Assembly: GCA_000004985.1 (NCBI GenBank)
Contig: GG738914.1
Direction: 5' to 3' (one strand)
Source of the DNA: Naegleria gruberi
Lineage: Eukaryota
DNA: 64,000 nucleotides
Shown here: positions 4,366 to 64,000 of the stretch, piece by piece
Position numbering within the stretch: position 1 is the first letter of the stretch
How the letters are laid out: the number at the start of each line of letters is the position of its first letter
Position numbers and translations under genes: made by a program
Notes under the pieces: model-generated
Seen by the model: the letters and a program-made list of their open reading frames with translations, nothing else
What the model was told of the DNA's origin: nothing
Databases searched by the model: none

Positions 4366-6729
4366 TTGAAAATGTTACTTCAAACATCATCAGAATTCAT
4401 TAATGATAATACAACAACAAGTGGTACCAACTCTACACAATTAGCCTTGTTGAAATGTAAATTATCATCCGAGAGAACATTACATGGATTAGGCTTTGAT
4501 GGTTCTAATTTACAAACCTACTTGGATGCACATATCAATGTTGATCAATTCCTCCTACAAATATTCTCTCATCAACAATTAGATACTCTGAAGGGTGCTG
4601 CTATTGCTGGTTTTACAAAATTATTAAATACATGGAATCCTAGTAATAGTAATAATAATAGCAATAATACATCATCAACAACAACAACAACAGATAAAGT
4701 CTATACTCCACAACAAGATACAATGAGTGTTGTTATTATTGATGTTGATTATTGGAATGAATTTCCATCATTAATTAATAATACTAATATTAATAATAAT
4801 GCTAAATATGGTATTCATATTCCATATCATGGAATGTTAGCAATTGGAGTTAAATTTGGTAATTTTCTAATGAGATGGACAGAATATGGTATTGTTGATA
4901 TTATTAATTTACAACAATTCTCTCCAAGTACTTTACAAAAATCTTTAATTATTAAAACAGTATCAACACCTATTAAATATAATACAAGTAATTTGAAAAA
5001 GATTGCAAATTTAATAATTCAATATAATACTCAATATCAATATGATTTATATGATAAAAGTCCAATTCAATTTATTAGAGATTTAATGGAATGTGTTGGA
5101 ATTAATTTCAAATTAGGAAAATGTAGTTTATTATTAAAAATTATTGAAACTCATTGGAAAAAGTTTTTTGGTAATGAAAAATGTGGAATTATTATAAATC
5201 CATATATTGAATCTGATAATTTATATAATTGTACAGATTATTCACATTTTATTGAAATTTCAAAGAATTTATTACAATATAATATTACCTATTCAAGTGA
5301 ATATTCATTTGAATGGTCAATTTTAAAATCATTTGAAAGAACTTTAAGATTATTATCAATGTCATGTACATTTGAACCTTCACTAAGACATGATTATATT
5401 GTAAATTCAAATACTGAACAATTATTTGGAAATGTTTCAATTAATACTAATACATTGAAATATATTTCATCTTCATTTAATATTGAAGAAGAAAATTCAA
5501 ATACAGATAAAAAGAATTCTGATACCATATTTGTATTATGTATGGATGGTGGTGGTACAAGAGGTCTCATTCTCTCAATTATTTTACGTGAAATTGAAAA
5601 GAGAACTAATCGTAAATTGAATGATATTTTTGATTTAGTTTGTGGAACATCAACTGGTGCTCTAACTTCAAGATGTGTTCAATCTGGTTTATCTGGTGAA
5701 GAAATTCAAACTCTTTATACTCAATTAGCAACTGATATTTTCAGTTCTAAATTAATTTTAAATGAAAAAATTACAAAATTTTACAAGACAGTTTCCTCTG
5801 GTAATTGGTATGAAGGAAGTAAATTAGAAGCACTTACATTGAGTAAAATTTCAAGATCCAAAGAGAATGATATCCTCTATTTACAAGATTTATATCAAAT
5901 TAAACCAAAGGCATTCTTTGTGAGTACTTTGGTCCCATCCACATTATCATTACAATCAATGAGTGATAATAATTCTATCAACAACAACACTAACAACACC
6001 TCCACCTCCTCCAATCAATCAAATAATAATACTACATCTGGTCAGTTGGAATATGAACGTGCTAGGTCAGATGAACCAATTTCATACATTTTTAGAACTT
6101 ATCCATGTCCATTCAATAAGGAAAATCAACCTACAAGATATAAGGGAACATGGAATGGACAAAATATTCCACTTTCAAGTTGTTTAAGAGCATCAACTGC
6201 TGCACCTGTATATTTTGATAAGAAGAGAATTGGTAATTCTCATTTCATTGATGGTGGTATTTGTAACAATAATCCAACTGAAATTGCCATTACTGAAATG
6301 AAGAAAATCTTTCCAAATCACACAAACTTTTGTGTTATTAGTTTAGGTACTGGTAAATATGTTAAACCAGCTCAACAACAACCAGAAAAAAAGTCATGGT
6401 TTTCATTTGGTCAATCCAATCCTCCTACTCCATCTTCAAATAAGGGATCTGATAAGATTACAGCTAATTTGACAACATTATTAGATATCTTTGAATTGAG
6501 TATGTCAAGTGAAGCAATTTCAAGAAGAGTTCAAGATATTGTGAATGAACAAACAGATAAGAATATTACCTATTTTAGACTTAATCCATCTTTACCAACT
6601 GATATTCCATTAGATTCTACTTTACCAGAAGTTTTTGAATTAATGGCTCAACAAACAAGAGAATATCTCAGAAATGAATCTGAATCTTTTGAAAAGATTA
6701 TCAAATTACTTTCAAATACTTGTAAATAA
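4366..6729 (+). CDS. patatin-like phospholipase (PNPLA/iPLA2 family)
   Basis: 787-aa ORF with CMDGGGTRGLILS (GGGxRG oxyanion motif), CGTSTGA (GxSxG nucleophile) and FIDGGICNNNP (catalytic DGG). Confidence 0.85.
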   Translation: MKMLLQTSSEFINDNTTTSGTNSTQLALLKCKLSSERTLHGLGFDGSNLQTYLDAHINVDQFLLQIFSHQQLDTLKGAAIAGFTKLLNTWNPSNSNNNSNNTSSTTTTTDKVYTPQQDTMSVVIIDVDYWNEFPSLINNTNINNNAKYGIHIPYHGMLAIGVKFGNFLMRWTEYGIVDIINLQQFSPSTLQKSLIIKTVSTPIKYNTSNLKKIANLIIQYNTQYQYDLYDKSPIQFIRDLMECVGINFKLGKCSLLLKIIETHWKKFFGNEKCGIIINPYIESDNLYNCTDYSHFIEISKNLLQYNITYSSEYSFEWSILKSFERTLRLLSMSCTFEPSLRHDYIVNSNTEQLFGNVSINTNTLKYISSSFNIEEENSNTDKKNSDTIFVLCMDGGGTRGLILSIILREIEKRTNRKLNDIFDLVCGTSTGALTSRCVQSGLSGEEIQTLYTQLATDIFSSKLILNEKITKFYKTVSSGNWYEGSKLEALTLSKISRSKENDILYLQDLYQIKPKAFFVSTLVPSTLSLQSMSDNNSINNNTNNTSTSSNQSNNNTTSGQLEYERARSDEPISYIFRTYPCPFNKENQPTRYKGTWNGQNIPLSSCLRASTAAPVYFDKKRIGNSHFIDGGICNNNPTEIAITEMKKIFPNHTNFCVISLGTGKYVKPAQQQPEKKSWFSFGQSNPPTPSSNKGSDKITANLTTLLDIFELSMSSEAISRRVQDIVNEQTDKNITYFRLNPSLPTDIPLDSTLPEVFELMAQQTREYLRNESESFEKIIKLLSNTCK

Positions 6730-32288: not shown

Positions 32289-34190
32289 TTATGAAATATT
32301 TGACATTGGATGCTGTTTGAAAATCAGCCTTTCAGCTCCTTGCTCTTGATATTCATCAAGTTTCATCCAATACGTACTATTATTATAATTATTGATTAAG
32401 AGAGATTTTCCACCCATCCAAGCAGAGTTCTCATGATTACTTTCACCAGTAACATTAATTAATGAGCCTGAAGGTGAAATTTTTCTAATTTCATTTTCGA
32501 GTCTTGTGTTGAATCCTTTAAATAAAGTATTTCCACCACAAACAAACACATTACTTATTAATTCTGCTTGTTGCTCTTTGGAAAATTCCTGTAATGTGTT
32601 TTCCAATATCTCAGCAAGACCTATTTGATCTCTTCCAGCAATTAATGGTTGGAAAACAATTTCTGGAATACGAATTCTTTCAACTGTCAATCTTAACCCA
32701 GTATTATCTGACATGTTCTTACTTTTCTTATATTGAGAAATGAAATGTGACTTGACATAGTCAGTCCTCTTCTCACCGAAATGTTTCATTTCTACTTTGT
32801 GGATGAGATTTGTTAAATCATTAACTTCAGAAGTAGCTTTCTTTACCTTCTTGGCATCAACAACTTCTTCCTTAGTGGAGGATTTCTTCTTTTTTTTCTT
32901 CTTTTTCTTATCAGTATCGTATAAACTCCAATCATCAAAGGTTTCATCTTCTGCATCATGAATTTCAGCTGCAATTTTGGATTTTTGTCTTTGCTTTGAG
33001 GCAGCTGATCTTTTGCTCTTAAGGGTGTGATCTTTGCTTTGTGAAGAAAGTTCAAATTGCATTTTTTGTAATTTGAATTGAAGTTGAGCCAATTCGTTCC
33101 TCTTGGTTTCTAACCATTTTTCACACTCAGATAAGTTTTTAAACTCAGGAATTGGGTGTTCATCAGGTTTAATTTCTGCTGTTAATTGTGCTGCAGCTTC
33201 TTTTGCTTTTAAAAATTCCTCATATTGCAACTTATTGTTGAAAATTCTAACAGTGCTATTTTCATAAAATTCCTTGTCTTCTGATAGTTTTTGCAATACA
33301 GAATGATAATCATCAGAAACCTGACAATAGTTGACTTTTAAGAATTCTGCCTTTGTTACAGACAAGGAAGGTATTCCCAAAACGTCATAAATAGGAATAA
33401 AATATTTAGAATCTGTCCCAATATTTGGATATTTCAATTGCATTGTCTTTAAGAGTAAATCAGTGGCATGAAAACCTCCTAAATTTAATCTTTTACAACT
33501 ATTCCACTGGACTGTACCATTTAGTATTGGTATCACGTGAGTAGAGTGAAAACCAGATCTAATAATTAATGAATTTACATTGGAATAATTCAATGATTTT
33601 TCTGTACAAGATTGATGCAAACTTAATAAAGCATCAATAGATAAATTAATAGCAGGTATTCCATAACATTCGAATAATATTTCAAGAGTAGATTGTCTTG
33701 TAAATGCAGGATTTAAAATAGATTCAGTAATTACTAATGGAATATCTTTTAAACTAATGTCACTAGCTGTTGAAAATCCCAATTTATAGAATATATAATC
33801 CATCACTTGTTCAAAATATTCAAAACTTGTTACTAAATCATTATCAAAAGGAGATCTTGCATTATATCTTAAATAATCAAAAGGATGTAAATCATTTCCA
33901 ACTAAATATCCTCCATTATGAAGTACTAATTTATCATCATCGGAAACAAAATCCAAATTTTTAATCTCACTCGCTTTTAACTTGGCACACAATGGCCTAA
34001 AATTGAGAACAGGTTCATCCATTGAAGACCAACCAGCCCTACAATGATAACTTCCATTATCAATAATAATTCCTAAAGGATGATTTTCATCGGTACTCAT
34101 TGATGGCACCGGATGAATCTTTTCAATTTTATGCAAGTCTTCATCTTCCTCTATGGTTTCAAAGTAATTTTTCATTTGCATCATCATCAC
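32289..34190 (-). CDS. actin-related protein, Arp5-like (actin fold with a large charged insertion)
   Basis: 633 aa. N-terminal actin-fold phosphate loop GIIIDNGSYHCRAGWS and C-terminal FVCGGNTLFKGFNTRLENEIRKISP...NSAWMGGKSLL. A ~150-aa K/E-rich insertion (KKKKKKKKSSTKEEV...) is typical of Arp5; Arp8 is not excluded. Confidence 0.6.
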   Translation of the reverse strand: MMMMQMKNYFETIEEDEDLHKIEKIHPVPSMSTDENHPLGIIIDNGSYHCRAGWSSMDEPVLNFRPLCAKLKASEIKNLDFVSDDDKLVLHNGGYLVGNDLHPFDYLRYNARSPFDNDLVTSFEYFEQVMDYIFYKLGFSTASDISLKDIPLVITESILNPAFTRQSTLEILFECYGIPAINLSIDALLSLHQSCTEKSLNYSNVNSLIIRSGFHSTHVIPILNGTVQWNSCKRLNLGGFHATDLLLKTMQLKYPNIGTDSKYFIPIYDVLGIPSLSVTKAEFLKVNYCQVSDDYHSVLQKLSEDKEFYENSTVRIFNNKLQYEEFLKAKEAAAQLTAEIKPDEHPIPEFKNLSECEKWLETKRNELAQLQFKLQKMQFELSSQSKDHTLKSKRSAASKQRQKSKIAAEIHDAEDETFDDWSLYDTDKKKKKKKKKSSTKEEVVDAKKVKKATSEVNDLTNLIHKVEMKHFGEKRTDYVKSHFISQYKKSKNMSDNTGLRLTVERIRIPEIVFQPLIAGRDQIGLAEILENTLQEFSKEQQAELISNVFVCGGNTLFKGFNTRLENEIRKISPSGSLINVTGESNHENSAWMGGKSLLINNYNNSTYWMKLDEYQEQGAERLIFKQHPMSNIS

Positions 34191-38904: not shown

Positions 38905-39469
38905 TTGAAAAAAATGTCAGAAAGTGAAGAGCCAACAGCATTTTGCATTTTAGATGATCACATCAAGTCGGAAGAACTAATACAAAACTATACAACTATT
39001 CGAAATGAAATGTTGGAAATTGAGAGGAATAAGCTTTTGCTTGTTGTGATTGGTTGCTTGAGAGATACAAATAATAACTTTACAAGATTTCAAATGGCAT
39101 GTTATGACAAGTCGTGTGGGAAATTCGTCACTGTTTGCTCTTTATCAGTCGGATTTACACAAGAACTAAAACAAGAGATCTCAGAAAGATTATCCAAACT
39201 CATAATACCAAGTCCAAGTGCTAATGTTATTTTCAATGAAAAACAGCCAGCTCAGGTTTGGTTTGCCAATTACAGTTTGGGAAGTAAAAGCTGCTGATGT
39301 TGGGTTATCAACTGTTCATATGGCTGGACATGGATTGATAAAGGAGGGAGCAGGCTTTGCACTTAGATTTCCAATGTTTAACAAAGAGAGGCCATTCAGG
39401 AAACCAAAGGATATTACCACTGTTGATGATATAATTAAAATGTATCATCGACAAGCTATACTATTCTAA
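38905..39469 (+). pseudogene. relic fragment of an ATP-dependent DNA ligase, C-terminal OB-fold region only, with a frame disruption
   Basis: Two overlapping ORFs in different frames. MACYDKSCGKFVTVCSLSVGFTQELKQEI resembles the ligase OB-domain (GKFxTVCKVGTGFSDEEL). VWEVKAADVGLSTVHMAGHGLIKEGAGFALRFPMFNKERPFRKPKDITTVDDIIKMY matches the ligase I C-terminus ([40 protein letters not shown]...). No adenylation domain (KxDG) lies upstream; a different gene starts at 38784. Confidence 0.5.
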
Positions 39470-40824
39470 ACTTCCTCTTCATAATCAGTTTCTTCGCTTA
39501 TTTCAATATAATCATTTTGAACAGATCGTATTTCTTCTCTACATTGTGTGAATTCTATTTCTTCTGCTCCTTCCTCAAGATACCTGTGTACGAATGATCT
39601 TTCAGAGTATAATTCATCAAAATTTTTCTCGATTCTGGAAAAAGTTTGGCTTATGCTGGTGGAGTTTGACAACATGTTAACATCCCTATCTCTGTAACAA
39701 ATATTTCCACCAGGAATATTCGACAGAGGACCATCATGAATTCCACATTTAAAACCAGCTGGGCACCAGTCAACAAATTTAATTTCTCTGGATGTCTTGA
39801 TCTTGGCTATGGCAGAGCTAACATGTCTAATGCAAATATCCCCTCTGTATTGGACAGTGCACACCATGAATTTGCCGTCCATTAAATTGCAATTAGTCAT
39901 CACTGAATATTTATCCATAAAACAACTTTCAGTAAGCTCAGTAATAGTTGGTTTCTCATAACTACAGAAAACAAATTCCTTAGGGTACAAAGGACTCATT
40001 GAATTGATAAGATATTTAACAGGCGGGTACGGGACAAGATTTGTCATTATTTCAGAAATAGATGAATTCAAACTTCCTTCTCTCCTTACTGATATTGTAG
40101 CCGAGGAGATTGCATTTGCAATAATTTCATTCAAATCTGTCATCTTTGGGTGCTCTACATTCAGCTTGTTTTTACAAATGTCAATTAAAGCTTCATTTTC
40201 CACAATAACTGAAGCATCCGAATACTCACGAATGGAATTCATTCCAAATAGGACATTGTATGATTCCACACATGAAGATACAGAACTTGGTGAAGCTAAA
40301 ATATCAAAACTTAATTTACACTTTTTCTCAAACCCTGGTGCTAGTCTCTCCATCAATAAATCTCTAAAACCAGAGCCAGTTCCTCCATTAAGAGATGAGG
40401 TTATTAAGAAACCCTGTAATGCGTCACATTCTTCAACCATTTTCTCAATTCTTTCCAAACAATTTTCCAAAACTAAATTTCCTCCAACTCCTCTTCCTTT
40501 AGCAAAATTATTGGCCGTATTTTCATTGCCACTAATTAAACTCTCACCATCATAAATATTATTATTTCCTGATCTGATTTTATCAATAATTTCAGAATCC
40601 AAATCAACGAATAATGCTCTTGCTCTCATCGTTCCGTCCATTGACTCGGAAAAGAAATATTTATCAGCTGCAGAATGATTGTGAATTTTAGCACCAGTTG
40701 AAGAATCAATTCCATGTTCCAAACACAATAAATCCCAACAAGTGTTTCCGATCTGAGAGCCTGCTTGTCCAATATGAATAGAAATTATTTCTCTCATTTT
40801 CTTGGTTGGCTTATTTTTTGTCAA
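39466..40824 (-). CDS. highly divergent alpha-tubulin-like protein
   Basis: 452 aa. MREIISIHIGQAGSQIGNTCWDLLCLEHGI (compare alpha-tubulin [30 protein letters not shown]), the tubulin signature NGGTGSGF, TNLVPYPP, KFVDWCPAGFKCGI and SNSTSI are all present. By eye, sequence conservation outside these blocks looks low relative to canonical alpha-tubulin; no identity was computed. An acidic tail is present. Confidence 0.75.
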   Translation of the reverse strand: MTKNKPTKKMREIISIHIGQAGSQIGNTCWDLLCLEHGIDSSTGAKIHNHSAADKYFFSESMDGTMRARALFVDLDSEIIDKIRSGNNNIYDGESLISGNENTANNFAKGRGVGGNLVLENCLERIEKMVEECDALQGFLITSSLNGGTGSGFRDLLMERLAPGFEKKCKLSFDILASPSSVSSCVESYNVLFGMNSIREYSDASVIVENEALIDICKNKLNVEHPKMTDLNEIIANAISSATISVRREGSLNSSISEIMTNLVPYPPVKYLINSMSPLYPKEFVFCSYEKPTITELTESCFMDKYSVMTNCNLMDGKFMVCTVQYRGDICIRHVSSAIAKIKTSREIKFVDWCPAGFKCGIHDGPLSNIPGGNICYRDRDVNMLSNSTSISQTFSRIEKNFDELYSERSFVHRYLEEGAEEIEFTQCREEIRSVQNDYIEISEETDYEEEV

Positions 40825-57168: not shown

Positions 57169-58461
57169 TTACAAATCTGGTATGGTTTTGCAGCATTGAC
57201 CATACATGTGCTCTACTTTATCAATGCTCAATCGTCGATTAAATCTTTGTTCCTCTATTTTGAGTTTAGGGAAGCATTTACAAAGCAATAGAGCAGTTGT
57301 TTCATCCACCTTATTTCCTCCAAATCGGAAAGTTGTCAACTCGGGGAGGTTAGCTTTGGTGAGTGGCATTAATTTACAAGATTCAAGTCTGTTCTTGGAC
57401 ATATCCAAGTGCTTTAGTTTGGGTAAATTGATTGATGGCATGAATTCCAAAAATTCTAATGAGTTAAATAGTTCAATATTATTGGATAATTTCAACTTTC
57501 GCAGTTCTTTCAAATCATTCAGACCAGTAAGCTTGCTGATCATTGTGCTCGATATGTCCAACTTTCTCAATCTTACCAGATTAGAAAGATCAATAGAAGT
57601 AATACATGGGTTATCGGAAATGTTCAATTTTTCCAATTTTCTTAATTTTGTGAGAGGTATCTGGCTGATTACTGTTAGTGAAAGATTGAGTTGTCTCAAT
57701 TCTTTCAGATTCGAAATGAATGAAATGGCATCACCAACAGGAGTAAAACTCAGATCAAGTGTTGTCAAGGTAGTTAATTTTGGTAGATATTTGAAAGCCT
57801 CGTCAGTATTTACCCTTGCTTTCAATTTTCTTAGTTTCAGATCTTTCAATGCAGTTATATTACAAATATTTTGTATTCCAAGCTCACAAACACAGCTGTC
57901 CATAATTTCCACACATTTCAACTTCATGCTGCCAAATAACTGATAATCAGCAAGTGTCAATTTTACATTTCGCAAACTAATCTTTGTCAACTCTTTCAAA
58001 TTACCTAATTCTTTCAAACAATTATTATCAAACTTGATTTTAGATTCATTATCAAATTTAAATCCTCTCAAATTACTATGTATTATCAACCGTTTGATTT
58101 CATCATCATTTTCCACTTTTTTAAATTTAATTTTCGTTCCGAGATGAGAAATTAATTTCAAACCTCCCTTCTCAGCTAATTTCCTCCATCTTTCATACTT
58201 TTTCATGCAATCAAACACAATATTAATCTGAACATTACTTTCCTGTACATATCTGTACCATTTCCTCGATACCAAAGCACACTTTATCACCTCTCTATTA
58301 TGCAAATAGGTAAAAATCACTTTCGATATCACTTCCGAACCCAAAGTTTCGATCAGTGGCTCTTCCTCATCAGCATCATCACCAACACCTCCTCCCAATA
58401 ATAAGCCCTGTTCTCTCGGCTGACTCGTGCTACTACTAAAAAACGTTCGAAAGAATTGCAT
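57169..58461 (-). CDS. F-box / leucine-rich-repeat protein
   Basis: 430 aa. The N-terminal F-box reads VISKVIFTYLHNREVIKCALVSRKWYRYVQ. It is followed by 12 or more LRRs of ~24 aa (LKELRKLKLSNNIELFNSLEFLEFMPSINLPKLKHLDMSKNRL...). Confidence 0.75.
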   Translation of the reverse strand: MQFFRTFFSSSTSQPREQGLLLGGGVGDDADEEEPLIETLGSEVISKVIFTYLHNREVIKCALVSRKWYRYVQESNVQINIVFDCMKKYERWRKLAEKGGLKLISHLGTKIKFKKVENDDEIKRLIIHSNLRGFKFDNESKIKFDNNCLKELGNLKELTKISLRNVKLTLADYQLFGSMKLKCVEIMDSCVCELGIQNICNITALKDLKLRKLKARVNTDEAFKYLPKLTTLTTLDLSFTPVGDAISFISNLKELRQLNLSLTVISQIPLTKLRKLEKLNISDNPCITSIDLSNLVRLRKLDISSTMISKLTGLNDLKELRKLKLSNNIELFNSLEFLEFMPSINLPKLKHLDMSKNRLESCKLMPLTKANLPELTTFRFGGNKVDETTALLLCKCFPKLKIEEQRFNRRLSIDKVEHMYGQCCKTIPDL

Positions 58462-58671
58462 CGTTGATTGGCGCTTATTTTTTTCTTAAAGTTTTACAGT
58501 AGCAACAATAATGTGGAATGTTAGTGGAATGGAGGCAAGGCAATAGTATGTGAAATCTGGAATTGTTGGAAACTAGTGGTTACTTATCTACAATGGTAGA
58601 TATTCTTGAGGATTCAAAGAGAGTGAGAATGAATTGTGAAAGAGGAAAGTTTGGTTTTCATTGTTGGATGA

Positions 58672-60033
58672 TTAGGGATATTGGACTCGATTTCCTAAGG
58701 TGATGTTTTGATAGGCTTCCTTCATGCGAATGTCAAATAATTCTTTCGAGTATTGTACATAGAATCCATTGGATTTAACTGCTTCGATCTGAAGTAGCAA
58801 GTTGTTCTTTCTGTTTTGTCCGTTTAATAAATAACCCAAATTTGTTCCATCCATTCTGATATTTCTTTGAGGATCATATAGAGATGAAATATTGCTATTT
58901 GGTGGAGAACTCTGATAAAGATGTTGTTGAATTTCAGTATCTTTCTGTAGAGATAGGGGAATTAAGGAAGTAAGAAATCGATTCTTTGAAATTGCAAGCA
59001 AAGCCAATGTCTTGTCATGTTTCAATTCTGTGGAGCAGAATTCGTATGCTTCTGGATTCTTTTGAATAGCTATCATGACCAGCTCTCTATCATTTTTCAA
59101 TTCATTGGAGGCATATTTGAGAGCTGCACCATTTTGATTCACTGCTTGGAGCACTATTTCTCTATCATTCCTTAGTGAATCGTCCAAATATTGAAGAGCT
59201 GCTCCGTAGCGAGTGACACTTTTCATGACAATGTTTCTGTCTTTTTTGAGAGTTGTTGATGCATATTGGATGCAAGAACCTTGGCTTTTGATTGCTTCCA
59301 TTACTAATTCAAAGTCATTTTGTAAATTGGAATTTACATATTTAAGAATCTCAGGATGAGTATTGACAGCTGTTATCACAATTTCCCTATCATTTCGAAA
59401 TGAAAATGTGTATTCCAATGCTCTTCCGTTTCGTTTCACAGCCTCAAATACCAATTCTCTATCATTCTGTAATGATTTATCAGCAAACTTGATAGATAAT
59501 GGCTCGTTTTTCACTGCCTCCATCATTAATTCCCTGTCCTTTCTTAATTGTTGCGAAACATGCGAAAGAATTTCTGAATCTCCATTTCTTACACATTCCA
59601 ATAGTACATTCCTACAATTTATCCATTTCACTAACTCCTTTTTTACTGATCCAATCTTAATAATATCACTAAATTGGTATCTTTTAGCTAATTTTACAAC
59701 CATTTCCTCAGTCAATCGATCTTGCAATTTTTTCCCTTGTTTACAAAAGCTTACAAAAAATTCAACGAAAATGTCTTCATCTTGTTGTAGGCTCGGAGGA
59801 ATCTGTTCAAATATCGAAATGGCCTTTGGAAAATCCCTTCCACAATTTTCTCTTCTAATAAACTTGAGTAGAAAATTCTTATCATGAGAAAATTCTATCG
59901 GAATGTATTGATAATTGTCTTCTCTGCGCTCCAGCCATAATTTTCTAAATTTCCTATCAATAGAATAGTGGTTTTTCAGGAGAGAACTTGGTGCCGAGTC
60001 GGAGAGCATAATTATAACATGTTGTTGATTCAT
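58672..60033 (-). CDS. repeat protein with 7.5 tandem 25-aa repeats (DUF4116-like)
   Basis: 453 aa. After a ~160-aa non-repeat head come DRELMMEAVKNEPLSIKFADKSLQN / DRELVFEAVKRNGRALEYTFSFRN / DREIVLQAVNQNGAALKYASNELKN and further copies. I recall this motif as DUF4116-like; this is unverified. Confidence 0.6.
   Translation of the reverse strand: MNQQHVIIMLSDSAPSSLLKNHYSIDRKFRKLWLERREDNYQYIPIEFSHDKNFLLKFIRRENCGRDFPKAISIFEQIPPSLQQDEDIFVEFFVSFCKQGKKLQDRLTEEMVVKLAKRYQFSDIIKIGSVKKELVKWINCRNVLLECVRNGDSEILSHVSQQLRKDRELMMEAVKNEPLSIKFADKSLQNDRELVFEAVKRNGRALEYTFSFRNDREIVITAVNTHPEILKYVNSNLQNDFELVMEAIKSQGSCIQYASTTLKKDRNIVMKSVTRYGAALQYLDDSLRNDREIVLQAVNQNGAALKYASNELKNDRELVMIAIQKNPEAYEFCSTELKHDKTLALLAISKNRFLTSLIPLSLQKDTEIQQHLYQSSPPNSNISSLYDPQRNIRMDGTNLGYLLNGQNRKNNLLLQIEAVKSNGFYVQYSKELFDIRMKEAYQNITLGNRVQYP
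58950..59550. repeat. 75-bp periodic coding tandem repeat (the 25-aa repeats of the 58672-60033 gene)
   Basis: Repeated ...aatgatagagaa(a/t)t(a/g)gt... blocks corresponding to the NDRE(I/L)V motif at 75-nt spacing. Confidence 0.5.
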
Positions 60034-60331
60034 TTTTTTTGATCTATTACAATGAAATGAAGTTATTGTAAACTTTCACAACCTTCTTTACATGTCTTTC
60101 TTGAAGTACTTGATTTTGAATTTATCTCATATCAAGAATCATTGATTTTCTTCTTTTGGTTTTGAATTCGTCCAGTTTGAGTTAATCAAGGTCAATAAAA
60201 GCTTGTTTACAGGTCTTCAACATTATTTCTTATACAATGAAAATATTCGAAAGTACAATTAAGATTTATTCAAAAAGATAATTCCAGATGTCAAAATCTT
60301 CAACACGTCAATTACAAAACCCAAACAATTC

Positions 60332-61231
60332 ATGACTCAAAAAAAAATGACCAAACGTGTATTAATTTTTGGTCAATCAGGTGTAGGTAAATCCTCCATG
60401 ATCAATGCTCTCGCCAATAGCAAACTCCCAGTTTTGGATGGAGCAGTTGGAACCACCTTTGAAAGCGAAGAAGTTTCGTTTAAAGATTCGTCCAATCAAG
60501 AAATACTTCTCATCGATACAGTAGGTCTCAGCGAATCAGCAACTGGCACCTCCTCTTCAATCGATTCTTTCATCAAACTCAAAAATCTATTGAAAAAATC
60601 AACTTGCGGTTTCAATTTAATGATCTTTGTAACAACCAAAGATCGAATCACAGGTAATGATAAAGCCAATATCGAACTATTCAAGACTATTCTTGGTGAT
60701 GACAAAGTGCCAGTAATCATGGTGGTTAATAAGAGTGAAAATCTTGAAGATTGTGAGAATATGGTATTAGATTTGGAGAGTAATCAGTGGGTTACTAAAA
60801 ATCTTTTGTATATTGAACAAGTTTATGGAAAGGATTGTTTTGCTTGTATTAAATCGACTTCTTTCCCATGTACGAAAGGAGACGATTTGACATTCTCTGA
60901 AGAGGAAAAGAAGTTGGTTAGTGAAGCTTCGAGAAGGATTGTTCTCGCAATGATTAACAAGTACTCTTCCAAGGAAAGTGTAGTACTTATCAGATCTAGT
61001 CAAGATTTATTTTCGAAACTCGTTCGAATGTGGAATTTGTTTCTTTTTAAAACTGGAGAGACAGCTTTCAAGATTGGAATTGATTTACAATCATTCTCAA
61101 GTGTTGGAAAGTTGGCAGAGAAACTAAAGGTGATCTTTAAGGCAGATATTAATTTTCTTGAACTGGCTATGGATCTTTATGGAATTGGTGTCAATAACAA
61201 TGAACATGATGTTGCTTGTAATAAAAAATAA
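60332..61231 (+). CDS. P-loop GTPase of MMR_HSR1/AIG1-like type with a C-terminal helical domain (paralogue A)
   Basis: 299 aa. G1 LIFGQSGVGKSSMINAL, G2 AVGTT, G3 LIDTVGL, G4 VVNKSE. The same architecture recurs in the next two genes. Confidence 0.7.
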   Translation: MTQKKMTKRVLIFGQSGVGKSSMINALANSKLPVLDGAVGTTFESEEVSFKDSSNQEILLIDTVGLSESATGTSSSIDSFIKLKNLLKKSTCGFNLMIFVTTKDRITGNDKANIELFKTILGDDKVPVIMVVNKSENLEDCENMVLDLESNQWVTKNLLYIEQVYGKDCFACIKSTSFPCTKGDDLTFSEEEKKLVSEASRRIVLAMINKYSSKESVVLIRSSQDLFSKLVRMWNLFLFKTGETAFKIGIDLQSFSSVGKLAEKLKVIFKADINFLELAMDLYGIGVNNNEHDVACNKK

Positions 61232-61283
61232 ATCTATCAAAGTAATGGACGAAACTGAAAAGTAATACTTTCGAATAAATTTA

Positions 61284-62177
61284 TTAGAATCCCAAAATAT
61301 CCTTAGCAACTTCTTGTGCCTTCTCCTTACTAACACCAAAGTTAATCATTAGCGCTTGAGTAACATTTTCCAACTTTTCTTCAAGCTCATCACGAACATT
61401 GAAAACATCCTTATGACCAAATATTCCAGCAATAGCATTTCCAATACTTGCAAAGGTCTTTTTCGTATTAATATAGAACCAATTCAATACTCTTGTGAGG
61501 ACTGTCATGAAATTTTCCTTCGTTACAATAAAAATACTTTCATCAGAAGCATGTTGGTCAATCAGATCAAACAATAGTTTTCTTGAGGTGTTGCATAATA
61601 AATTGATACTTTCATTGTTGCTAGTAAAGGAAGGTTGTGGGAAGGCAACTGTTTGTTTTGCACAGAAGGTTTGCTCACCGAAAGCACTTGCCAATTGAGA
61701 TTCGTTTTGTTTAATCCAAGTATTATTGGTTAAATCATCGAGAGATTTCAAACCGTTATCTGTGTCAGCTTTGGAAACAACCATAAGTGTTGGAACTTTG
61801 TTTTGGCCAAGGATTTGAGAGAATAATTGAACATTCTTTACATCACTACTTGTGATTCGTCCCTTTTCGAATACATAGATGAATAGGTTGAAACCTGTCA
61901 AGGAATCTTTCAAAAAGTCTTTCAACTTTACAAAGGCGGTAAAGTTATCAACTGTGCCAGATTCACATTCATTCAAACCTACTGTATCATCAAAACGATA
62001 GATTTTACCATTGATCTCTGTTCCCTGTTTGTTGATTGGTGGAATAATTGTCATTTGAAAAGTGACACCAACAGCACTGTCGTCAGTATTAAAGTTTTCA
62101 CCAGTCAAATTGTTTAAAATTGTGGTTTTGCCTGATCCTGAACATCCATAGATTAACACACGTCTTTCTGTTTTCAT
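61284..62177 (-). CDS. P-loop GTPase, paralogue B of the same family
   Basis: 297 aa. G1 LIYGCSGSGKTTILNNL, AVGVT, FDDTVGL, G4 VVSKAD. It is colinear with paralogue A (...GFNLFIYV(F/T)...KVP(V/T)(I/L)MVV(N/S)K...). Confidence 0.7.
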   Translation of the reverse strand: MKTERRVLIYGCSGSGKTTILNNLTGENFNTDDSAVGVTFQMTIIPPINKQGTEINGKIYRFDDTVGLNECESGTVDNFTAFVKLKDFLKDSLTGFNLFIYVFEKGRITSSDVKNVQLFSQILGQNKVPTLMVVSKADTDNGLKSLDDLTNNTWIKQNESQLASAFGEQTFCAKQTVAFPQPSFTSNNESINLLCNTSRKLLFDLIDQHASDESIFIVTKENFMTVLTRVLNWFYINTKKTFASIGNAIAGIFGHKDVFNVRDELEEKLENVTQALMINFGVSKEKAQEVAKDILGF

Positions 62178-62346
62178 TTTTTGTTTTTTATAATTCTTAT
62201 TCGAATCCTTCTAATTGTTTGCAATGTCCATTTTCCAGTGTTGTGAGAATTACAAAAACCTAATTTGAAAATTAAATACTTTTTTGAACCCTAGTCTGCC
62301 CATTTTCTGAACCAAATGAATACTTTCCAATAAATCAAAAAGAAAA

Positions 62347-63492
62347 ATGAAACCACCAAGTTTCGAATCACAAGTCATAAATTCTTCCAACTCTAAAACA
62401 CAACAAATAACTGCCTTCAACAGTGTTACCTACAATACCGACAATACCATTGCTATCAAATATCTAAACCAATCGAATGGTGACGTTTCCAAAGCCATTG
62501 AAAATTATTTTGATGAACAGGAACAACAGTCAACTGATTCAGATCGATCAAGTATTTCAAATCCTTCCAGTGATGTAATTCGCATTTTGGTTGTTGGTAT
62601 TACAGGTTCTGGTAAATCATCCCTTGTCAATGGAGTTACTGGAAGTACATTAGCAACAAGTGACAATGCCAATGGATGTACCTGTGGATATAAACGACAG
62701 GAATGTGAATACGAAAGTCAAAAATTCGAATTAATCGATACAGCTGGATTTGGTGAAGTTTCTGAAGTTGGAACTGTAAAACCAGATGTTGCTTTCAAAT
62801 CTATTCAAAAATTGGTCAGATATTCATACTCTGGTTACAATTTGATCGTATTTGTGACAACAAAGAAAAAAATTACTCAAACTGATGTTGATCATGTCAA
62901 GCTAATCACAGAGATACTTTGTAAAAACTCCATTCCAACAGTATTACTTGTTAACAAGTCTGAATCTGGTGCTAACAAAATTGATGACATCTGTCAAAAT
63001 AAGTGGCTCAATGATAATAATGGAGCAAATCTGAATGAATTCTACAAAGCTTTTGGAAAGGACACCTTTCGAGCCATTCAACAAATTGCTTTTCCAAAAG
63101 GTGAAAAATCAATCCTTCAACAAATTAGAGAAGCATCCAAAAGGATATTCTTCGAGAAGGTTATTCCCTATGCTTCCCCAACAAGAATTGTCATGAAACA
63201 CACAGTATCTCAATTTCTATCGGATTGTTACAGAACTGAGACAAGTGGTGTAGATGGTACCTCAAAGCATAATTTCATTGTTGGAACCATACTATTGCCC
63301 TTCCTTCCACTCATGTTATGGGCGGAGAGTTTTGAAAAAACCATGAAAAAGAGGGAAATTAAAGAGTTGGAAGAAGAGCACAGTAATTTTTTGGTTTCAA
63401 CCTTATCAATCAGTAAGAAACAGGCAGTACAAATTGCCAAAGAGAGCGTCACCTATGAATTTTCTGAATTGGGATCAGGTTCATGGGAATAA
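62347..63492 (+). CDS. P-loop GTPase, paralogue C, with an N-terminal UBA-like module
   Basis: 381 aa. Residues ~20-60 DNTIAIKYLNQSNGDVSKAIENYFD have a UBA/CUE-like pattern. Then G1 LVVGITGSGKSSLVNGV, NGCT, LIDTAGF, G4 LVNKSE, followed by a longer C-terminal helical/hydrophobic region (ILLPFLPLMLWA). Confidence 0.65.
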   Translation: MKPPSFESQVINSSNSKTQQITAFNSVTYNTDNTIAIKYLNQSNGDVSKAIENYFDEQEQQSTDSDRSSISNPSSDVIRILVVGITGSGKSSLVNGVTGSTLATSDNANGCTCGYKRQECEYESQKFELIDTAGFGEVSEVGTVKPDVAFKSIQKLVRYSYSGYNLIVFVTTKKKITQTDVDHVKLITEILCKNSIPTVLLVNKSESGANKIDDICQNKWLNDNNGANLNEFYKAFGKDTFRAIQQIAFPKGEKSILQQIREASKRIFFEKVIPYASPTRIVMKHTVSQFLSDCYRTETSGVDGTSKHNFIVGTILLPFLPLMLWAESFEKTMKKREIKELEEEHSNFLVSTLSISKKQAVQIAKESVTYEFSELGSGSWE

Positions 63493-63720: not shown

Positions 63721-64000
63721 TGTTGTTAGCATCTGTCCTTCTTTCAATCTTTGCAATCTGCTTCACTATTGTGTTGATCATTCTCTGTAAAACTGAATTT
63801 GATTCTGATGAAATTTATGTTTTTCCTTCGGTAAGCATTGACGGAAAGGAAGAAGACAACACGTCATCAATTTTTGAACCATTGCCAACATGCAGTAGTG
63901 CTCCTCTATCATCAACTCATGAAGAAGTGGACGAAAGTGTTCCATTGATCATTGACTTGGGATTATTTGATTGTTATTATGGGAGACCAAAGAATAGTGA
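63721..64000 (+). CDS. 5' part of a gene encoding a protein with an N-terminal TM/signal anchor, running off the window end
   Basis: ATG at 63721, then MLLASVLLSIFAICFTIVLIILCKTEFDSDEIYVFPSVSIDGKEEDN..., open to the end of the window. Confidence 0.3.

Follow-up and report, generated by a model that had tools for sequence, protein, structure and literature searches.

The AIG1/GIMAP GTPases are recognised by a set of motifs that comprises G1 (GxxxxGKS), G2 (SxTx), G3 (DxPG), a conserved box (LSxPGPHALLLVxQLGR[FY]TxE[DE]), a G4 of the type NKxD, TxGD or, in coral, TxC[DE], and a G5/IAN region, RxxxFNN[KR]AxxxE (PMC7053062). GIMAPs in the strict sense also have a coiled-coil segment beside the AIG1 domain. 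Membrane-anchored GIMAP2 and GIMAP5 bind GTP and may act as scaffolds, soluble GIMAP7 (possibly also GIMAP4) dimerises with anchored GIMAPs and triggers hydrolysis via an arginine finger, and the helices of these proteins fold back on the G domain (PMC8201404, PMC8066113). The group is known from vertebrates, invertebrates, plants and Entamoeba; its animal and plant members have roles in immunity and cell death, and in Entamoeba it influences virulence (PMC8201404, PMC5884625). Bacterial conflict systems use GTPase domains of the AIG type as effectors (PMC7159879), and amoeba symbionts have been reported to encode GIMAP-like effectors (PMC3417536). Here we describe three adjacent genes of Naegleria gruberi that occupy positions 60332-63492 of a 64,000-nt stretch of contig GG738914.1 (assembly GCA_000004985.1). 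The whole stretch is referred to below as the window, and all positions are counted in its coordinates. We put the probability at about 85% that the products of the three genes are AIG1/Toc-like paralogues and not housekeeping GTPases.

Motifs, fold and placement of the three GTPases

The genes alternate in orientation (+, -, +) and their open reading frames (ORFs) are intact, coding for 299, 297 and 381 amino acids (aa), in line with the three adjacent genes for proteins of about 300-380 aa listed in the initial annotation. Copy 1 (ORF open at 60332-61231, probable gene 60347-61231, plus strand) encodes an AIG1-like G domain followed by C-terminal helices. A spacer of 52 bp (61232-61283) lies between the stop codons of its 3' end and that of the convergent copy 2 (61284-62177, minus strand), in which the G domain is likewise followed by C-terminal helices, including the terminal "GVSKEKAQEVAKD" helix. 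Copies 2 and 3 diverge from a common intergenic region of 169 bp (62178-62346) that, judged from its position and sequence, may be a bidirectional promoter. Copy 3 (62347-63492, plus strand) is composed of a UBA-like domain, a linker, an AIG1-like G domain (62575-63096, residues 77-250), helices, a hydrophobic segment and terminal helices. No fourth copy was detected in the window by tblastn.

The G1, DT[VA]G and G4 motifs that had been noted initially are present in all three proteins, with the correction that the P-loop of copy 3 has T at the position given as S. The P-loops read GQSGVGKS, GCSGSGKT and GITGSGKS in copies 1, 2 and 3, the G3 motifs DTVG, DTVG and DTAG, and the G4 motifs NKSE, SKAD and NKSE. 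Gly-x-Thr of switch I (G40, T42) is invariant in the trio. Because the residue that follows DTxG is hydrophobic, the proteins are without a Ras-like catalytic glutamine in cis, as are GIMAPs and Toc. Sequences corresponding to the conserved box are GFNLMIFVTTKDRIT, GFNLFIYVFEKGRIT and GYNLIVFVTTKKKIT; the arginine is kept in copy 1 (DRIT) and copy 2 (GRIT), and lysine stands in its place in copy 3 (KKIT). The G5/IAN region reads STSFP, TVAFP and QIAFP. A helical C-terminal region common to the three copies, also anticipated in the initial annotation, is visible both in the alignment and in the model of copy 3. In Pfam, MMR_HSR1 scores 49.8, 25.8 and 50.1 bits in copies 1, 2 and 3, slightly more than AIG1 in each case (36.4, 24.2 and 45.8 bits); against the AIG1 cut-off of 27 bits, copies 1 and 3 lie above and copy 2 just under.

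The structure of copy 3 was predicted with AlphaFold2 on an alignment of 94 sequences of the family described below, giving a predicted local distance difference test score (pLDDT) of 80.8, mostly above 90 in the G domain, and a predicted template modelling score of 0.74. Behind the G domain the model has helices at residues 255-275, 287-299, 310-332, 338-353 and 357-374, and these pack back on the G domain as in the GIMAP-type fold. When the model was compared with the PDB in Foldseek, the top 18 matches were chains of GIMAP7, GIMAP2, GIMAP5, GIMAP1 or Toc34, with GIMAP7 first, and Toc33 appeared from rank 20. Together with the AIG1 scores, this bears out the initial assignment of the trio to MMR_HSR1/AIG1-type GTPases. 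Among viral predicted structures, the top Foldseek matches came from Sylvanvirus and a pithovirus; these proteins are of AIG1 type but only 12-14% identical.

Decisive among the comparisons was an hhalign alignment of the family profile with GIMAP7 (GIMAP7 sequence verified against 3zjc_A), which reached 96% probability and an E-value of 3e-9. It places the family segment S-x-x-G-[FY]-N-L-L-I-x-V-x-x-x-G-R-I-T on GIMAP7 SCPGPHAIVLVLLLGRYT, with the family arginine on Arg103 (GRIT on GRYT), and the family VVTxCE on LFTRKEE (TxCE on TRKE), and it ends before the G5/IAN region. Beyond the end of this alignment, an aromatic amphipathic stretch in the C-terminus of GIMAP7 (3zjc_A), FNRIWKMLSEIWHRF, resembles the family motif RxWNxF, which may be a coincidence.

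Several observations weigh against this placement. By sequence alone, the best E-values in the PDB belong to EngA/Der, partly because its two domains add up, and over the G domain Era and EngA are about level with GIMAP7: the best single stretch is that of GIMAP7 (39 bits, profile positions 4-198), Era equals it, and single domains of EngA reach about 34-36 bits. A profile of the part after G3 and the C-terminus had no significant sequence match in the PDB and none to GIMAPs, the best being Era at an E-value of 0.02. Furthermore, the canonical DxPG of AIG1 and the IAN motif RxxxFNN are missing in the trio. The EngA/Der matches, and the fact that EngA, HydF and Era are the top weak matches in NCBIfam, are what speaks for the trio being duplicated housekeeping GTPases of ribosome assembly or tRNA modification (Era, EngA/Der, EngB, MnmE or HydF type), a reading to which we give almost no credence. 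The NCBIfam models of EngA, Era, EngB, HydF, MnmE, HflX and YlqF score 15-55 bits, to be compared with curated cut-offs of 116-953, the best being EngA with 54.9 bits (cut-off 306.7), Era NF000908 with 38.9 (cut-off 237) and EngB/YsxC with 28.6 (cut-off 124). The Era, EngA, EngB, HydF and MnmE equivalogs were rejected on these scores, and the assignment to Era/EngB housekeeping orthologues that had been named initially as a refutation was not obtained. EngA owes part of its total score to having two G domains; taken one by one, they score below GIMAP7, whose match also covers a longer stretch. The trio has neither a KH or other RNA-binding domain nor a second G domain, its C-terminus is different, the fold searches are led by GIMAP and Toc, and the family has a patchy and not a universal distribution.

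Measured against the AIG1 motif set, G1 in the form GxxxxGK[ST], the G2 threonine and a G4 of the described type are all found in the trio, and the conserved box is found in the family and in the trio, apart from the lysine of copy 3. The G3 of the family is DT[VAI]GLNE, with the proline missing in nearly all members, and its G5 region is x-x-C-F-a, with no Arg and no Asn-Asn; only the Phe of RxxxFNN seems to be kept. By fold, conserved box and G4 type, the family is an unnamed TRAFAC GTPase subfamily that groups with AIG1/GIMAP and Toc33/34. Because the G3 proline and the IAN motif are missing while the other motifs are present, we treat it as a sister of the AIG1/GIMAP-Toc clade and not as bona fide GIMAPs.

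The resemblance to GIMAP/AIG1 (PF04548) thus includes the best fold match, AIG1 scores above the cut-off for copies 1 and 3, the family conserved-box arginine at the position of GIMAP7 Arg103, and a hydrophobic residue after DxxG. The family G4, TxCE, is as in coral GIMAPs (PMC7053062) and aligns with the TRKE of GIMAP7. A helical C-terminal extension, a hydrophobic anchor in some members, clustered paralogues and a patchy distribution are common to both. Differences extend beyond G3 and the IAN motif: the C-terminus of the family (RxWNxF and a "G-x-S-x-x-E-A" helix) has no detectable similarity to the extensions of GIMAPs, the Naegleria G4 motifs NKSE and SKAD depart from the TxCE of the family, and there are only three copies. 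The chloroplast import GTPases Toc33, Toc34 and Toc159 give weak sequence matches (31-32 bits) and have different G4 and C-terminal regions, and Naegleria has no plastid.

A subfamily of bacteria and eukaryotes, and the descent of the trio

The family was found by an exhaustive HMMER search with a profile of the trio through 1.84 billion cluster representatives. No other search revealed it: when homologues were sought through a word index, starting from copy 3, from the trio or from the alignment of 94 sequences, P-loop words swamped the candidates, so that mostly Der/EngA proteins were returned and even copy 2 was missed. The HMMER search gave 3470 matching representatives at E<1e-3, 716 at E<1e-10 and 37 at E<1e-30. 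Scores fall from 414-502 bits for the trio to 185 bits for the next sequence, so that these representatives, among which the presence of other Naegleria proteomes is unconfirmed, include no further close paralogue or orthologue. The view of the array as lineage-expanded, implied in the initial annotation, does not hold, as it is limited to three copies.

The relatives are mostly 255-290 aa long and can be aligned with the trio from end to end, including RxWNxF and the terminal helix. In its N-terminal part, the family consensus is composed of RxLVFGxxGxGK[ST]S, GxTF, DTxGLNE, GTV and G[FY]NLLIxVxxxGRITxxxxxNYxLF. These are followed by KIPxIxVVTxCE, a conserved Trp, CF, RxWNxF and the terminal "G-[FI]-S-x-x-E-A" helix. 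The G4 motif, T-x-[CL]-E, occurs as TGLE (33 times), TGCE (19 times) and THCE (15 times). Among the 94 aligned sequences, MMR_HSR1 is found in 94, AIG1 in 82 (E<1e-3) and UBA_4 in copy 3 only, and no Pfam model covers the C-terminal module.

Named eukaryotic members come from Agaricomycetes (Jaapia, Athelia, Suillus), the nematode Panagrolaimus and the euglenid Ploeotia vitrea, and bacterial members from Spirosoma and Thiothrix. A pattern scan of 185,579 prokaryotic genomes, in which a single peptide pattern gave 9 loci as a lower bound, added Dolichospermum, Leptolyngbya, Scytonema, an uncultured cyanobacterium and Sangeribacter, as well as Dechloromonas, Azonexus, a betaproteobacterial metagenome-assembled genome and Corallococcus. 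The known spread is therefore a patchy one over cyanobacteria, Bacteroidota, proteobacteria, Agaricomycete fungi, a nematode and a euglenid. Neither the viral contigs nor the JGI metagenome contigs scanned with the trio profile contained relatives. The trio accordingly belongs to a coherent subfamily without a Pfam model of its own, present in bacteria and eukaryotes and equipped with its own C-terminal module, which is mildly new.

Some variation in architecture was seen among the relatives. Two single-domain relatives carry an N-terminal DnaJ domain, and in the Agaricomycetes (often) and in some metagenome proteins, two or three units of G domain and C-terminal module follow in tandem in one polypeptide. 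The nearest metagenome relative of the copy 3 G domain (38% identity over 41% of copy 3) lies on an 8.4-kb contig, where it is flanked on both sides by over 1 kb of DNA that looks non-coding and has a K_trans potassium transporter as a near neighbour. This suggests that the contig is of eukaryotic origin.

With regard to the descent of the trio, copies 1 and 2 are reciprocal best matches in BLASTP (142 bits, E 1e-43, 32.7% identity, compared with 118 bits for the best outsider). The best matches of copy 3 are copies 1 and 2 (114 and 113 bits, E about 1e-31, about 31% identity), and its next match has 98.6 bits. In the alignment, the derived characters common to the three copies are a Lys at G4, an extended loop ahead of the conserved Trp, FG[KE][DQ]xF and an "AFP" G5 region. 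A neighbour-joining tree of the 94 family members was unresolved, recovering the trio as monophyletic in 7 of 60 bootstraps. The case for local duplication consequently comes from the reciprocal best matches and the shared derived features and not from the tree; they support a single ancient series of local duplications followed by deep divergence. The BLASTP E-values (1e-31 to 1e-43) are far beyond chance, in agreement with the initial view that the copies are old paralogues and not duplicates produced in assembly. At 31-33% protein identity, synonymous sites are saturated between the paralogues.

All three genes are already represented in NCBI, under generic names ("GTP-binding protein" or "predicted protein"), and their AIG1 matches are precomputed in public databases. 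Copy 1 corresponds to XP_002670512 (NAEGRDRAFT_59667), a model of 294 aa annotated from the second ATG, copy 2 to XP_002670569 (NAEGRDRAFT_81813, 297 aa), and copy 3, at 100% identity, to XP_002670513 ("GTP-binding protein [Naegleria gruberi]"), which is placed on a 233-kb scaffold.

Variation between strains could be followed on a 1.6-kb metagenome contig that is 98.2% identical to positions 59867-61448 and represents a second N. gruberi strain; the counts obtained from it are small. This one contig was retrieved by looking up the 97% relative of copy 1, and searching the contig index for exact matches to copies 2 and 3 returned nothing. Two in-frame ATGs with an A-run between them stand at the beginning of copy 1 (60332-60349, ATGACTCAAAAAAAAATG). 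Since a 1-bp indel at 60338 in the second strain throws the first ATG out of frame, and the NCBI model has 294 aa, the true start is probably the second ATG at 60347. Within copy 1, the strains differ by 11 substitutions, 7 non-synonymous and 4 synonymous, which give a ratio of non-synonymous to synonymous rates (dN/dS) of about 0.47 by the Nei-Gojobori method on these small counts. In addition, a 9-bp in-frame deletion (61029-61037) removes W-N-L from RMWNLF, the copy 1 version of the family RxWNxF, in the second strain. Divergence of copy 1 (1.2%) equals that of the neighbouring intergenic DNA, and the 165 bp of copy 2 covered by the contig are identical. Copy 1 is loosely constrained, which fits relaxed or diversifying selection.

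A candidate mechanism and its alternatives

The features that set copy 3 apart from the other two copies are located on either side of its G domain. Its UBA-like domain (62401-62526, residues 19-60) is matched by Pfam UBA_4 (PF14555) with 35.3 bits over a cut-off of 21.8 (E 9.8e-9) and is modelled as three helices (residues 16-28, 33-42 and 47-67, pLDDT 63-87); its nearest solved sequence is the UBA domain of Dcn1, at an E-value of 0.1 only. The hydrophobic segment (63274-63333, residues 310-329, FIVGTILLPFLPLMLWAESF) has a mean Kyte-Doolittle hydropathy of 1.68 over 19 residues, is followed by the basic stretch KTMKKREIK, and constitutes an insertion relative to the family alignment, which makes it a candidate membrane anchor or hairpin. 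Both additions had been pointed out in the initial annotation. The fusion of UBA_4 with an AIG1-like domain is unique among the 94 aligned sequences and is mildly new. Copy 3 is also without the RxWNxF motif. In copy 1 this motif is contained in IRSSQDLFSKLVRMWNLF (60989-61042), the most amphipathic helix of the protein, with its highest hydrophobic moment (0.63).

Arg103 of GIMAP7 is said, in work of Schwefel et al. from 2013, to be the arginine supplied in trans. On the GIMAP model, the trio proteins would bind GTP and dimerise via their G domains, with hydrolysis triggered across the dimer, and homo- or heterodimerisation would depend on nucleotide and take place on membranes, as for GIMAP2 and GIMAP7. 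Copies 1 and 2 would be soluble, or attach peripherally via the RxWNxF helix, which is amphipathic and aromatic. The hydrophobic segment of copy 3 would fix this protein to an internal membrane, and through its UBA-like domain the protein would either attract a ubiquitin or ubiquitin-like mark or be attracted to one. Copies 2 and 3 may be co-expressed from the 169-bp spacer acting as a common divergent promoter. Such an arrangement would be like that of GIMAP2 and GIMAP7, an anchored scaffold with a soluble partner that switches it off, and organelle or vacuole surveillance, autophagy-like turnover and lipid-droplet or endoplasmic reticulum biology are candidate processes. The UBA-like fusion also recalls the interaction of GIMAP6 with GABARAPL2 reported in two studies (PMC3804274, PMC9111091).

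We hold this picture of dimerisation-activated GTPases, with a tethered, ubiquitin(-like)-coupled copy 3 and soluble or peripheral partners in copies 1 and 2, tentatively and at somewhat less than even odds. Membrane insertion is uncertain, since the hydrophobic segment of copy 3 is short, has two prolines in it and forms a helix in the model only at low confidence (pLDDT 56-62). No division of labour follows simply from the R-to-K change in copy 3, because GIMAP2 too keeps the conserved-box arginine. That the three copies form heterodimers with one another, finally, is purely our inference.

A different role was proposed initially, namely that the trio, perhaps with its F-box/LRR and DUF4116 neighbours, is a cell-autonomous defence or self/non-self system of the amoeba, directed at intracellular bacteria or giant viruses. 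No result here demonstrates an immune role. Such a role is still conjecture and in our estimate unlikely, its sole and indirect hints being the bacterial gene neighbourhoods and the loose constraint between strains. It is favoured by the immune, cell-death and virulence roles of the relatives and the use of AIG-type domains as bacterial conflict effectors cited above (PMC8201404, PMC5884625, PMC7159879), by the patchy spread of the family, by the dN/dS of copy 1 together with the in-frame deletion in a conserved motif, and by the surroundings of the bacterial members, in which defence and toxin genes abound. The neighbours are Uma2 and a PIN toxin in Dolichospermum, PIN, a YjcZ-like protein and a patatin in Scytonema, Trypco1 and a trypsin-GUN4 protein in Leptolyngbya, DUF4351 in the uncultured cyanobacterium, Mrr in Dechloromonas and a type I restriction R subunit (HsdR) in Azonexus; SRAP lies directly downstream in three related betaproteobacteria. 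Such contexts are suggestive of residence in defence islands in a survey made without statistical control. They are reminiscent of the AIG-type effectors of bacterial ternary conflict systems (PMC7159879), which also are AIG-clade GTPases in defence-type contexts, notably in cyanobacteria. Those effectors are, however, fused into or placed within vWA-MoxR/iSTAND operons, whereas the bacterial relatives described here stand alone as genes of about 260 aa, without a conserved partner in the 8 loci with usable flanks (the ninth, Corallococcus, is a 441-bp contig). Matches to PADLOC-DB 2.0 remained weak and at the level of the P-loop, none covering a full model; the best for a single domain was mad8 (28.8 bits), and a tandem metagenome relative scored 48 bits with LeoBC over two short P-loop stretches. 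Against a defence role also stand the number of copies, with no further close paralogue on record, and the absence of relatives from the viral contigs scanned. F-box/LRR and DUF4116 genes were not seen beside relatives elsewhere, and nothing links those neighbours functionally to the trio. The dN/dS, which is below 1 and comes from 11 substitutions, can be explained by relaxed constraint as readily as by diversifying selection. The fungal framing of the initial proposal ("hyphal fusion", "conservation across fungi") does not apply to N. gruberi, which is a heterolobosean amoeboflagellate.

Two further explanations concern the history of the genes. Gain from bacteria, either prey or endosymbiont, followed by tandem duplication and a lineage-specific function or none, would be compatible with the favoured mechanism, and we consider it rather unlikely. 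In its favour, copy 1 resembles a Spirosoma protein (118 bits, 34.6% identity) no less than it resembles copy 3 (114 bits), no representative falls between 414 and 185 bits, leaving no close orthologue on record in other eukaryotes, and GIMAP-like effectors are reported in amoeba symbionts. The trio nevertheless has a native base composition (33-35% GC) and is embedded among eukaryotic genes, the family occurs also in Agaricomycetes, a nematode and a euglenid that like Naegleria belongs to Discoba, and the neighbour-joining tree recovers the trio in 7 of 60 bootstraps. Decay under relaxed constraint, with at least one copy persisting as a relic, appears highly improbable. The divergence of copy 1 at the rate of intergenic DNA, its dN/dS, the deletion of W-N-L in the other strain and the loss of RxWNxF and of the conserved-box arginine from copy 3 would suit decay. 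That all three ORFs are intact and still have their full P-loop, G3 and G4, although identity has fallen to about 31%, in contrast requires long-term purifying selection, and the fragment of copy 2 covered in the other strain is identical. AIG1/Toc-like paralogues that arose by local duplication remain our preferred reading of the trio.

Genomic surroundings and significance of the locus

The window is compact, AT-rich eukaryotic DNA of 25-36% GC. Its genes encode, among others, an actin-family protein, tubulin, a protein kinase, RCC1 repeats, a P-type ATPase, malate/lactate dehydrogenase and Sel1 repeats. To the left of the trio (57169-60033) lie genes for an F-box protein with leucine-rich repeats (LRR; 430 aa) and for a protein with six DUF4116 repeats (453 aa). 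Pfam thereby identified both neighbours that the initial annotation had listed as an F-box/LRR and a repeat protein, and no other copy of either was found within the 64-kb window. Pfam Actin covers two stretches of the actin-family ORF (32289-34190, 633 aa), whose product may be an Arp or have an inserted segment. A tubulin ORF at 39466-40824 starts at TTG; mechanical GTG or TTG starts of ORFs in the window suggest introns or upstream exons. A patatin-like phospholipase ORF of 787 aa is located at 4366-6729, and an ORF with a hydrophobic N-terminal segment (MLLASVLLSIFAICFTIVLIILC…) begins at 63721 and runs past the window end at 64000.

A survey of the literature on Naegleria with AIG1 or GIMAP, and with the locus tags and accessions of the trio, found nothing relevant. 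The results provide a useful annotation and a lead, and hold no surprise for specialists, because clustered, diverged and patchily distributed AIG1-like genes are typical of the clade.

AIG1/GIMAP GTPases matter in vertebrate lymphocyte survival, plant defence and Entamoeba virulence, and their mechanism and evolutionary origin are unclear. A heterolobosean amoeba is now seen to have three diverged members of a sister subfamily of AIG1, a subfamily that keeps the conserved-box arginine and a T/N-x-x-E type of G4. The UBA-like fusion of copy 3 provides a concrete, testable link between a GTPase of AIG1-like type and ubiquitin-like signalling. One far-reaching scenario, which we regard as quite improbable, is that the trio represents a minimal and ancient form of the GIMAP2/GIMAP7 logic. 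An anchored GTPase reading ubiquitin or a ubiquitin-like mark with its UBA-like domain, and two soluble paralogues that switch it by heterodimerisation, would carry out cell-autonomous surveillance of vacuoles or organelles harbouring intracellular bacteria or giant viruses, and the subfamily of about 260-aa proteins would then be conflict-associated and have moved repeatedly between bacteria and eukaryotes. If true, the subfamily would bear on the origin of the immune AIG1 GTPases of animals and plants.

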